Below, piece by piece: positions 13,813 to 15,942 of a DNA stretch of 64,000 nucleotides (its first letter is position 1; each line of letters starts with the position of its first letter). The DNA is taken from positions 992,001 to 1,056,000 of the forward strand of contig OZ242358.1 in the NCBI GenBank assembly GCA_965208835.1, written 5' to 3'. Source of the DNA: Candidatus Latescibacterota bacterium (GTDB taxonomy: Bacteria; Latescibacterota; UBA2968; GCA-2709665). The notes under the pieces were generated by a model that saw only the letters and a list, made by a program, of their open reading frames with translations, did not search any database and had not been told where the DNA came from. Made by a program: the position numbers and the translations under genes.

Positions 13813-14394
13813 ATGCGTATAATCACGGGCAAACTGAAGGGCCGGATCATTCCGTTTGACGTCAGGAAACACGGCGACGCCCGCGTAACGCCGGCAAGGA
13901 TCAAGGAGGCCGCGTTTAACATTCTGGGCGCCAGGCTTGATCATATTCATTTCCTCGACCTGTTTTCCTGTTCGGGTCAGATCGGGCTGGAAGCGTACAG
14001 TCGTGGCGCCCGGGTGCTTCTGAACGAACCGGATCGTCGCAGGCACGGCTTTATTTCAAGGCTGCTGAAGGACTGGGGGGGGGAAAGACAGGTTCGCCTC
14101 ACGAATCAGCCCGTGGAACGACTCCTGCCGCTGCTGGAGTCGGAACAACAGGCATTTGACGTAATATATGCGGATCCGCCGTACCATCTGATGCATGACG
14201 ACGTCCCGTTCGCCCTTGCCATGCCCACCCGCCTGGGCGGATCGGTCCTCCTTGCTCCTTCCGCCCATATCCTCATTCAACATGCCGCAGACCTCGAGAT
14301 GCCCGTCACTTCCCGGCACCTTTCGCTATGCGTTCGGAAGACCTACGGGGGCACTTCGTTATCGATCTACCGTAACGTGTGCGGAGGAGAGTGA
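13813..14394 (+). CDS. rsmD: 16S rRNA m2G966 methyltransferase RsmD family
   Basis: MRIITGKLKGR start, LDLFSCSGQIGLEAYSRGA, YADPPY and KTYGGT. The longer ORF start lies inside the MITE. Confidence 0.85.
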   Translation: MRIITGKLKGRIIPFDVRKHGDARVTPARIKEAAFNILGARLDHIHFLDLFSCSGQIGLEAYSRGARVLLNEPDRRRHGFISRLLKDWGGERQVRLTNQPVERLLPLLESEQQAFDVIYADPPYHLMHDDVPFALAMPTRLGGSVLLAPSAHILIQHAADLEMPVTSRHLSLCVRKTYGGTSLSIYRNVCGGE

Positions 14395-14413
14395 GCTCCT
14401 GACGTTTTTCAAC

Positions 14414-14442
14414 TTGCCTTTGTACGATGTTGCCTGTATTCT
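14414..14442 (+). promoter_or_regulatory. Putative promoter of the DUF5069-like gene
   Basis: TTGCCT-17 nt-TATTCT. Confidence 0.45.
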
Positions 14443-14461
14443 TTGAATTGTCCAACTCTAT

Positions 14462-14644
14462 CAGCCCGTTGAAAAAGCCCATCCGGGCTACGGCCGGCCC
14501 TTGCGGTCGAAATACTGCGTTGCGCTCCCTCGCCGAATCCAGGGATGGGACTCAGTCGCGCGCCTTGTCTTCGGCCACAATGGCAATCTATTTCCGGGTC
14601 GGGACACCATACCTCGCCTGCAGAGCGACTTTATCAACGGACTG
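14462..14644. mobile_element. MITE family B copy 1
   Basis: TIRs CAGCCCGTTGAAAAA / TTTATCAACGGACTG. Closely similar to 41983-42139. Confidence 0.8.
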
Positions 14645-14667
14645 CTTTTCAGAAAGGAGCCGAACAG

Positions 14668-14946
14668 ATGGATACCATGCACGAATCCATCGAATTCCGC
14701 CCGCGGGGCAGAACACTTGCCATGGGCGGTATTCCCTGGCTGCCAAGGATTACAGACAAGGCCCGGGCGATGCTGCGGAACAACATCGGCGACTACGTCT
14801 ACCCCTGACCGGCCGACCAGAAGTTCCTGGAGGAACTCGGCTTGCCGGCAGAGGAATTCACGCAAATCGTGTCCGAATGCAAACTGGACGCGGAAGTCAT
14901 TGAACGCGTGCGTCCTTTTTACGAGAAGGCCCGCAGGGGAACTTAG
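14668..14946 (+). CDS. DUF5069-like small protein with in-frame TGA (candidate selenoprotein, 92 aa)
   Basis: AAAGGAG RBS and ATG 14668. Reads ...GGIPWLPRITDKARAMLRNNIGDYVYP-TGA(14806-14808)-PADQKFLEELGLPAEEF... and stays open to TAG 14944-14946, followed by a terminator. Confidence 0.75.
14809..14848 (+). promoter_or_regulatory. Putative bacterial SECIS element
   Basis: Hairpin directly 3' of the TGA: upper stem AGTTCC/GGAACT, loop TGGA starting 19 nt after the TGA, lower pairing GCCG/CGGC or CCGGC/GCCGG. Confidence 0.6.
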
Positions 14947-14950
14947 AATA

Positions 14951-14983
14951 CCGCTGCCGCCACGCAACGCGTGGCGGCAGCGG
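14951..14983. terminator. Hairpin terminator between convergent genes
   Basis: Perfect 15 bp stem ccgctgccgccacgc-aac-gcgtggcggcagcgg, 4 nt after TAG 14946. Confidence 0.8.
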
Positions 14984-15006
14984 ACATTCTTCTCTGAATC
15001 ACGACG

Positions 15007-15942
15007 CTAACGCCTTCCGCCCTCCGGAAGCGCTTTCTTGGCAAGCGCGCGGACCTCTCCGGTTCCCATCTGCAGCAATCCGTCGATCCCGATTACATCC
15101 GCCGCGAAGAGCTGCGGACACTCCTGCGCCGCCAGGTCATATGCTTCCAGGACGTCGTAATTTACCCCCCGGTACCGGTAGAGTTGTCCCAAGCTCTCCA
15201 GCTGTCCGCTTCGTCTCAGGGAGTTCGTTACGCCCATCTTGAAATAATACAACTGTCGATCTCTCCTGTCGCCCCACCTCAACGTATCCGGCTCGGGGAT
15301 GTACGCCATCGACCTTTCCAGTTCCTCCTGGAAGGCATTGATCCGGGCGTCGACCATCTCCAGCAAACCCCGAAGGACTTCCCTTCGCGCGTCCTCCGTT
15401 TCATCCTGTAGCATATCCTGCAGAACCAGCGCAGCCTTCCCGTAGAATACGTAGCGGTCGCGCTTCCCGTCTCCGAACAGATCCATTTCAATGGCTTCGG
15501 CTTTGCGTACCAGCGCTTCCAGGTCCAGGTGGTCATCGCCCACGCCGGCGTAGTCATCGTCGGCGCGCGCCAACTGAATCCCCACGAGCAATGCCCGTTC
15601 TACAATCTGCATCATGTCTTCAGCAGGATCAAACAACCTCAGTTTCCGGGTGCTTTCGTCATCCGTCCTAATCGCTCCCGGGCCGTGCGCAAAGCCACGA
15701 TTGACCAGTACCTGCTCTGCATCTATCCCCAGGCGGTCCAGCAATTCGCGAAGCGCACCGCCCAATACCGGATGGCTTGCGGCGGGCAGGAATTCCGTGC
15801 GGCCTTCGACCACCAGGTCCGCCATGTCTGCGGCCAGTGCATCGTCTCCTTCCGAAACCTCTCTGCTTTGTGTCCCGCGTTCACGCGTCAGTGTGAAGAT
15901 AACCGCGAGCATTAAAAGGACAACGACAGCGATGTAGACCAT
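15007..15942 (-). CDS. Hypothetical membrane-anchored protein
   Basis: GAGGGAG RBS, N-terminal hydrophobic helix (MVYIAVVVLLMLAVIF) and an acidic helical body. No family recognised. Confidence 0.7.
   Translation of the reverse strand: MVYIAVVVLLMLAVIFTLTRERGTQSREVSEGDDALAADMADLVVEGRTEFLPAASHPVLGGALRELLDRLGIDAEQVLVNRGFAHGPGAIRTDDESTRKLRLFDPAEDMMQIVERALLVGIQLARADDDYAGVGDDHLDLEALVRKAEAIEMDLFGDGKRDRYVFYGKAALVLQDMLQDETEDARREVLRGLLEMVDARINAFQEELERSMAYIPEPDTLRWGDRRDRQLYYFKMGVTNSLRRSGQLESLGQLYRYRGVNYDVLEAYDLAAQECPQLFAADVIGIDGLLQMGTGEVRALAKKALPEGGRR

Follow-up and report, generated by a model that had tools for sequence, protein, structure and literature searches.

Does the TGA that interrupts a short reading frame in this stretch of DNA end a protein, or does it specify an amino acid within one? 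The stretch, called the window throughout, comprises 64,000 nucleotides (nt) of contig OZ242358.1 from a Candidatus Latescibacterota bacterium (assembly GCA_965208835.1) and lies in a single-contig 5.18-Mb genome (G000). At 14668-14946 on its forward strand it carries a gene for a protein of the DUF5069 family in which codon 47 is TGA. Recoding of UGA to selenocysteine (Sec), directed by a selenocysteine insertion sequence (SECIS) inside the coding sequence, is a textbook mechanism in bacteria, and an earlier note on this DNA, made from the letters alone, had proposed that it operates here. The proposal is supported by the Sec machinery of the genome, by the presence of TGA in most orthologs and by a conserved hairpin, and judged by comparison of sequences UGA47 is very probably decoded as Sec in a real selenoprotein gene.

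In the mechanism that we propose, the window's 14668-14946 (+) would be a functional selenoprotein gene in which a bacterial-type SECIS hairpin within the coding sequence recruits SelB and Sec-tRNA(Sec), and these would decode UGA codon 47 as Sec. The product would be a 92-residue single-domain DUF5069 protein, with Sec47 replacing the Cys of most family members. The anatomy of the gene can be read directly from the window (Table 1), where 45 sense codons separate the TGA from the closing TAG in one continuous frame. The ribosome-binding AAAGGAG, ATG, TGA, TAG and 15-bp terminator described in the earlier note proved correct to the base, and translation with TGA as U returned the identical 92-residue product. 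Orthologs begin at the same Met, and none of the other long frames over this stretch of the gene matched a Pfam family.

An in-frame TGA at the cysteine position of DUF5069

The read-through product matches Pfam DUF5069 (PF16798) with E=1.5e-13 and 51.5 bits against a cut-off of 27, and the match pairs residues 12-82 with positions 4-74 of the 133 in the profile and so runs across the TGA. The 92-residue protein is a short form that does without the C-terminal third of the Pfam model, and no NCBIfam model matches it at E≤1. A protein search gave 29 relatives, 28 of which were aligned (P0017 was left out). At the TGA column, 24 of these have Cys within the motif YPCPADQ, three are gene calls that end after ...YP, and one (P0006) has Trp, probably because the gene was called with a code in which TGA is Trp. 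The Cys of YNCPLDQ in the solved structure PDB 3OMD is likewise aligned to U47. The family motif given in the earlier note, with the TGA on the Cys of YPCPAD, was thus the right one.

To place this column in the wider family, we searched 1.84 billion representatives with a profile and obtained 727 proteins at E≤0.001. In the 150 of these that were listed, the column has 157 filled cells: 111 hold Cys, a count that includes the C entered for U in the query itself, 29 hold Ser and 17 hold other residues. In these alignments the Cys at the U47 column is strongly conserved in the short-form clade, but the wider DUF5069 family does not always have it; the near-invariant residues across that wider family are P12, R13, G21, L25, R27, D30, K31, R33, A34, G41, Y43, D50, F64 and D74. 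The same genomes also encode proteins of ∼430-445 residues made of three DUF5069 repeats and without an in-frame stop, at G000:C1:277016-277165 and at equivalent loci in nearly every relative (P0032, P0035, P0042, P0046); three DUF5069 stretches are seen in P0032.

The earlier note had also suggested looking for alternation of TGA and TGC among relatives, and this is directly observed. We compared three overlapping sets of orthologs, which together hold 66 distinct Sec gene sequences and 20 distinct Cys-form regions. Of 61 related genomes searched, an ortholog at E≤1e-20 is present in 53, with an in-frame TGA in 50 of these and none in three. A scan of one genome per species gave 80 loci, and a motif search, which failed to find the gene in two of them, gave TGA in 59 and TGC or TGT in 19 of the remaining 78; the record titles are mostly Candidatus Latescibacterota, with Poribacteria, Gemmatimonadota, Planctomycetota, Opitutales and Handelsmanbacteria also present. 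In a phylum sample of 168 genomes, the E≤1e-18 threshold yields an ortholog in 119, with TGA in 104 and Cys in 15. These 119 are confined to four families (f1-f4), whose listed members are the genome itself and genomes of the same genus, family, order or class. When the loci are aligned, the TGA keeps its column in 49 of 52 in one set and 59 of 78 in another. The earlier note had named a TGA peculiar to this assembly as an outcome that would speak against Sec, and these counts show that it is not so confined.

These counts bear on the simplest alternative, in which the TGA arose by nonsense mutation or through faulty sequencing or assembly, and what is left is a pseudogene. Gene callers do stop here, as the earlier note predicted: in addition to the three aligned hits, 11 of the 150 listed cluster representatives end exactly after YP, which could be taken to favor a broken gene. 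However, TGA occurs in the 104 phylum-sample orthologs from independent assemblies and in the 59 of 78 loci of metagenome-assembled genomes from several phyla, no difference is listed at 14806-14808 for the contigs of other runs that span it, and the codons beyond the TGA show purifying selection (below), so that we give a pseudogene practically no weight. Public protein sets store the gene as fragments of 45 to 90 residues ending in ...YP, often with spurious N-terminal extensions (P0022, P0026, P0029, P0047, P0051, P0052), and further fragments of this kind are P0054, P0058, P0061, P0067, P0077 and P0080.

All 66 distinct Sec genes are collinear and in frame with a single internal stop, and the Cys forms encode the same full length as the read-through product. 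The ratio of nonsynonymous to synonymous substitution rates (dN/dS) comes to 0.265 over codons 57-85, compared with 0.145 over codons 12-46, values that are rough since dS, at ∼1.2, is near saturation. By this codon comparison, the codons downstream of the UGA are under purifying selection; F64 and D74 are invariant in the Sec genes, yet both codons are used. An alternative in which translation ends at UGA47 to release a 46-residue peptide, with the hairpin acting as a regulatory or pausing element, could account for the fact that most family-invariant residues lie in the upstream half. It is at odds with the 45 downstream codons, which are open in 66 of 66 Sec genes and constrained as just described with F64 and D74 fixed despite free synonymous choice, with the full-length Cys forms, and with the Pfam match and the confident predicted fold, both of which need helices 2-4. 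We regard such a peptide as highly improbable, and return to a full-length selenoprotein as the reading pursued here.

Sequences from RNA-library runs labelled as sponge metagenome were available as assembled Logan contigs, which report presence in a library and not transcription, level, strand or transcript end. Contigs of this kind cover 14774-14925 and 14798-14928 with no difference listed at the TGA, and contigs from the ortholog of a relative match only 14784-14840, which holds the TGA and the SECIS core; parts of the DUF5069 gene are without contig cover in these runs.

Of the 80 distinct proteins placed in a tree, 60 are Sec forms and 20 Cys forms, and the tree requires at least seven changes of label, three of them forced by starred branches. 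As this tree rests on 80 columns and has many open forks and long branches, no direction of change was drawn from it.

The hairpin downstream of UGA47 and the selenocysteine machinery

The hairpin that the earlier note described directly 3′ of the TGA, AGTTCC-TGGA-GGAACT with a loop starting 19 nt after the UGA, is present as described. Folded on its own, the sequence gives a 71-nt structure of −25.3 kcal/mol with z=−1.78, and 17 of 200 shuffles are as good. This single-sequence fold is not significant, and the case for a SECIS therefore rests on comparison with other sequences. A fold over the 63 nt from the TGA reaches −19.2 kcal/mol with the lower stem included; in other genera the lower stem is different or absent, and its sequence is not conserved in other lineages.

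For the comparison, we used 57 distinct aligned regions, each the TGA and the following 45 nt, as well as a 58th form that has an extra codon. Each of the 58 distinct TGA forms keeps the UUCC-UGGA-GGAA hairpin. Its distance from the UGA is 19 nt in all but the 58th, GUAUUCC-UGGA-GGAAUAC, where it is 22 nt. A lack of hairpin conservation in TGA-bearing orthologs, which would have spoken for a mutation or an error, is thus not what is seen in any ortholog examined. Within the 57 aligned forms the UGGA loop is invariant, at least five of the six core pairs are kept in every form, and the 12-nt core UUCCUGGAGGAA hardly varies between phyla, three forms having one substitution each. The pair that flanks the UUCC/GGAA core (18-31) is GC in 44 forms and CG in 13 and is never broken, and the next pair outward (17-32) is AU in 38, GU in 14, GC in four and unpaired in one. 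Across the 7-bp helix, 92.7% of cells are paired. Shuffling lowers this to 84.1%, with none of 500 shuffles as high as the real pairing, and sliding the partner strand lowers it to 13-60%. RNAalifold returned the same 6-bp hairpin as its consensus, unprompted.

The strongest single result for a SECIS hairpin is the profile of synonymous sites across the 66 distinct Sec genes. Counting only sequences that have the modal residue, a single codon serves at each of K52, L54, E55 and E56. For Leu54, which has six codons to choose from, this is CTG in 66 of 66 genes, and variation within codons 52-56 is limited to Phe53, with an entropy of 0.20 bits (TTC, rarely TTT). In the same genes L25, R27 and R33 use six of six codons, and synonymous variation is normal outside the hairpin, where codons 52-56 show constraint on the RNA. 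The 20 Cys forms use four Leu codons, divide Phe between TTC and TTT, and have E, Q, D, R or A at residue 55 and E, Q, K, N or R at residue 56. The mean energy of the 6-bp core is +1.7 kcal/mol in the Cys forms versus −5.8 kcal/mol in the Sec forms.

The textbook bacterial SECIS is the element of E. coli fdhF. The bacterial SECIS model of Zhang and Gladyshev, as given in section 5 of a May 2026 review (PMC13188914), has a loop of 3-9 nt with G in the first two loop positions, a stem of 4-16 bp, a distance of 16-37 nt from the UGA and a minimum free energy at or below −7.5 kcal/mol. The DUF5069 element has the same stem-loop just 3′ of the UGA and lies within all of these limits, with a 4-nt UGGA loop that has G at positions 2-3, a stem of 6-7 bp, a spacing of 19 nt and a mean energy of −7.55 kcal/mol for the 24-nt core alone over the 57 Sec forms. 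According to the same review, SECIS elements of different bacterial genes usually do not resemble each other. In contrast, the DUF5069 core is nearly the same across phyla, fixing the residues F-L-E-E in the Sec forms.

The machinery that such an element would require is encoded in the genome, so that the absence of selA, selB, selC and selD, another outcome that the earlier note had set against its own reading, does not apply. We found selA (483 bits), the C-terminal wing domain of SelB (75 bits) and a tRNA-SeC with anticodon tca that directly adjoins selB, the three clustered at C1:3.5364-3.5397 Mb, and also selD (359 bits), which has one in-frame TGA at the canonical position. In addition to selD (CGUAAK), a single in-frame TGA at a known Sec site was found in an fdhA-like gene (SRAUHAP), and further candidates are two SelW-like genes (CAAUG, CARUG) and Prx-like genes (NUPTC, plus one less clear). 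Most of these Sec candidates have a hairpin with a G-containing loop 17-22 nt downstream of the TGA. The loops of the selD, fdhA-like and SelW-like sites are GGUC, GGUCU and GUU, beginning 17-22 nt after the UGA, and the DUF5069 element resembles these elements of its own genome.

Every one of 17 further genomes with the TGA form has SelB, as do G000, G023 and G060. Among genomes with the Cys form, one genus (g6) mixes the two, with G022 and G034 Cys and the remainder Sec; both of these Cys genomes have selA and selB, and a SelB match was obtained in 15 of 17 others of this form. In G059, which is 86% complete, no selA or selB match exceeds the cut-off. Cys forms occur mostly in Sec users, and the association of the Cys form with missing Sec machinery is a partial pattern.

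A further alternative is that UGA47 is read through with Trp, Cys or Gly inserted in place of Sec, whether by near-cognate decoding, by suppression or under a reassigned code. The Trp of P0006 at this column could point in that direction, as could the fact that the identity of the residue at 47 rests on sequence comparison. On the other side, TGA is the commonest stop in G000, closing 570 of 1114 stop-to-stop frames of at least 1500 nt, and the rsmD-like gene upstream also terminates in TGA, so that TGA is an ordinary stop codon in this organism; no UCA-anticodon tRNA other than tRNA-SeC was found in G000. Reading as another residue would also leave a conserved hairpin with a G-containing loop at SECIS distance unexplained, as well as the occurrence of SelB in the TGA-form genomes. 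We consider this alternative very unlikely, and selenocysteine remains the residue that best fits codon 47.

Several observations nevertheless weigh against decoding as Sec and should be set beside the evidence above. The insertion of Sec, rather than of another residue, is deduced by comparison of sequences. In the wider family, Cys fills 71% of the cells of the U47 column and Ser 18%, and the residue is therefore not universally required. The single-sequence fold is weakly better than chance, and covariation events in the hairpin are few and clustered by clade, with three pairs changed on both sides compared with 2.8 in shuffles (382 of 500 reach this number). The Cys forms are still paired in 72.1% of cells, because the coding of F-L-x-E is partly self-complementary, and one Cys form (L062) keeps seven of seven pairs with a loop of UACA. 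The dN/dS values are affected by the near saturation already described, contigs from RNA libraries cannot prove transcription, and the neighborhoods of the 78 loci have no consistent functional theme. The perfect 7-bp hairpin of L062 (G059:C79) lies at the SECIS position and may be a SECIS left over after a change from Sec to Cys.

Fold, possible function and relation to known selenoproteins

An AlphaFold2 model built with the 28-homolog alignment has a mean predicted local distance difference test (pLDDT) score of 89.6 and consists of a short beta-hairpin and four helices (25-36, 48-57, 61-70 and 74-91), with U47 directly before helix 2. Foldseek aligned the model to chain A of 3OMD with E=4.8e-4, a template modeling (TM) score of 0.77 and a root-mean-square deviation of 1.6 Å over 78 columns, and returned no other PDB match at E≤0.001. 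The fold is mainly helical, and none of the 28 Foldseek matches is a thioredoxin-like chain. A search of the ESM Atlas with a natural homolog (P0002) returned DUF5069 clusters only, with scores of 0.87-0.89, and so gave no lead to a function. Prediction of a homodimer from two copies of a natural Cys homolog scored 0.00 against a mark of 0.42, which speaks neither for nor against a dimer.

No second conserved Cys or Sec was found in the aligned homologs, nor a UxxC or CxxU motif, and the context of the Sec is YPU(P/G/A/S)AD. The P-U-P motif of the earlier note, which had suggested a redox or metal-binding protein, thus holds for this gene and not for many orthologs, which have P-U-G, P-U-A or P-U-S. 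Exchange of Sec for Cys is typical of redox-active or nucleophilic residues, and for that reason a catalytic or redox role of a single Sec suggests itself; by this analogy, we put the chances that Sec47 has a redox or nucleophilic function at about even. The invariant R13, R27, D30, K31, R33 and D50 suggest that Sec47 may act on a small anionic substrate, perhaps with an external partner. Fusions offer little further guidance: ten longer DUF5069 proteins include partners as varied as an AI-2E transporter, a methyltransferase, a cupin (in two proteins), DLH and DUF2249, with three having a single DUF5069 match and no partner and one having three DUF5069 repeats, and these partners are too diverse to name a function.

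Taken further, and as a speculation that we would not favor on present evidence, the short-form DUF5069 proteins could be an unrecorded class of selenoenzyme, with a non-thioredoxin helical fold, a single catalytic Sec among invariant Arg, Lys and Asp residues, and a SECIS that fixes F-L-E-E, in which Sec is perhaps the older state and was repeatedly replaced by Cys. The activity of this class might be the handling of an oxyanion or chalcogen, and not that of a thiol-disulfide oxidoreductase.

The closest known relatives are the Cys-containing DUF5069 proteins, including that of Leptospirillum rubarum solved by structural genomics (3OMD), which has the same domain, fold and conserved residues. 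It differs in having Cys in place of Sec and in its length of 145 residues, compared with ∼90 here and 133 positions in the Pfam model. Unlike the redox selenoproteins with a thioredoxin fold, the short form has neither that fold nor a Cys or Sec two residues away. Predicted selenoproteins based on other domains of unknown function (DUF166, DUF1573, DUF3179, DUF1858 and DUF523), which appear in Table 1 of PMC13188914, share the UGA on a Cys position, the TGA-bearing orthologs and the hairpin of bacterial SECIS type; the present family is distinguished from these by its domain (PF16798), its lone Sec without UxxC or CxxU, and its non-thioredoxin fold.

New selenoprotein families are found regularly through comparison of Sec and Cys forms, and the earlier note had described this family as one not known to it as a selenoprotein. 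Table 1 of PMC13188914 lists 119 selenoprotein families of prokaryotes together with their domain accessions, and neither DUF5069 nor PF16798 was found in the text of the review including that table, with its supplements and BSepDB lying outside the search; to this extent the family is indeed uncatalogued. It is likely that DUF5069 is unrecorded in print as a selenoprotein family, with GOS_A considered by its description only. A true selenoprotein gene could still belong to a family described under another name, for example the 'hypothetical protein GOS_A' of 2008 (PMC2398784), which comprises two Sec sequences and 155 Cys homologs with no conserved domain, or to one entered in a supplementary table or a database. 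Against this identity, 'DUF5069', 'PF16798' and 'IPR031849' were absent from a full-text literature search as well as from the May 2026 review text, the accessible text of the deep-Sep and BSepDB papers (PMC12013277, PMC13326102) does not name DUF5069, and the 92-residue protein has no NCBIfam match although GOS_B, GOS_C and most newer families have NF accessions in Table 1 of that review. Prior description is thus unlikely, though less remote than the alternatives weighed above.

If the gene is a selenoprotein gene, as we think very probable, the prokaryotic selenoproteome gains a well-supported family and a systematic error of annotation is put right. DUF5069, for which the structure of one member has been solved, also gains a first functional handle, with Cys/Sec47 as the starting point. 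The Sec family is common in little-studied, mostly uncultured lineages, with runs that hold the sequence labelled sponge metagenome, and its nearly invariant SECIS would be a clean natural example of an RNA structure that constrains protein sequence.

Features and neighbors of the gene

The features of the gene are collected in Table 1, together with the coordinates of the other G000 genes that have an in-frame TGA. In 14300-15100, we found no sigma-70-like promoter, and a search of the same interval against Rfam at a permissive threshold gave nothing near the gathering score, with chance matches on the terminator only. The terminator-like hairpin sits between the DUF5069 gene and a convergent gene at 15007-15942 (−), which encodes 311 residues, has no Pfam family and is conserved in place at 14 loci within the genus (cluster c9).

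Table 1. Features of the DUF5069 selenoprotein gene candidate in the window, and other genes with an in-frame TGA in the same genome
Feature	Position	Strand	Basis or remark
Shine-Dalgarno-like AAAGGAG	14653..14659	+	8 nt 5′ of start codon; read from sequence
Coding sequence, putative 92-aa Sec-containing DUF5069 protein	14668..14946	+	Translation; Pfam match across TGA
Start codon ATG	14668-14670	+	
In-frame TGA, candidate U47 (codon 47), at family Cys of YPCPAD	14806..14808	+	Homolog alignment
Putative extended lower stem CCGGC...GCCGG around core	14809..14850	+	Present in minimum-free-energy folds; this genus
Putative SECIS core hairpin AGUUCC/GGAACU, loop UGGA	14822..14837	+	Encodes K52-F-L-E-E-L57
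Core part AGTTCC	14822-14827	+	Read from sequence
Core part TGGA	14828-14831	+	Read from sequence
Core part GGAACT	14832-14837	+	Read from sequence
Stop codon TAG	14944-14946	+	
Terminator-like hairpin, perfect 15-bp stem, 3-nt loop	14951..14983	+	Inverted repeat 14951-14965/14969-14983
G000 genes with an in-frame TGA (positions on C1)	2632877-2633617, 433241-433627, 2175427-2175765, 1297536-1297754, 4003183-4003395, 4401300-4402223		

The neighborhoods of the 78 loci were compared with open reading frames that were called crudely and clustered by blastp, and shadow frames in high-GC sequence contaminate the clusters. An rsmD-like gene lies upstream in 33 of the 78 loci and a gene for a 197-residue protein ∼1.5 kb upstream in 24, with GT2 and ArgC genes further along. 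Directly downstream and on the same strand, 14 loci (four Sec, ten Cys) have a gene for an FNR-like oxidoreductase (Pfam NAD_binding_1, E=8.6e-13), which is a possible redox partner of the DUF5069 protein. The FNR-like gene spans about +130 to +1030 from the Sec or Cys codon and belongs to one clade (L119, L122, L124, L127, L128, L140, L142, L144, L145 and others).

Between the rsmD-like gene and the DUF5069 gene lies a repeat of ∼185 nt (14459-14646), which occupies most of the intervening space and ends ∼20 nt before the ATG. The repeat occurs at ∼140 places in the 5.18-Mb genome with 82-97% identity and in both orientations (213 high-scoring segment pairs). In a sponge-metagenome run, the summed contig depth over the repeat is ∼6000, compared with ∼8 on its flanks, with many joints at internal deletions. 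It folds as a long imperfect hairpin with paired ends, has no Rfam match, and looks like a miniature inverted-repeat transposable element or a repetitive extragenic palindromic element. Another copy lies right after selD, at C1:4402329-4402491.

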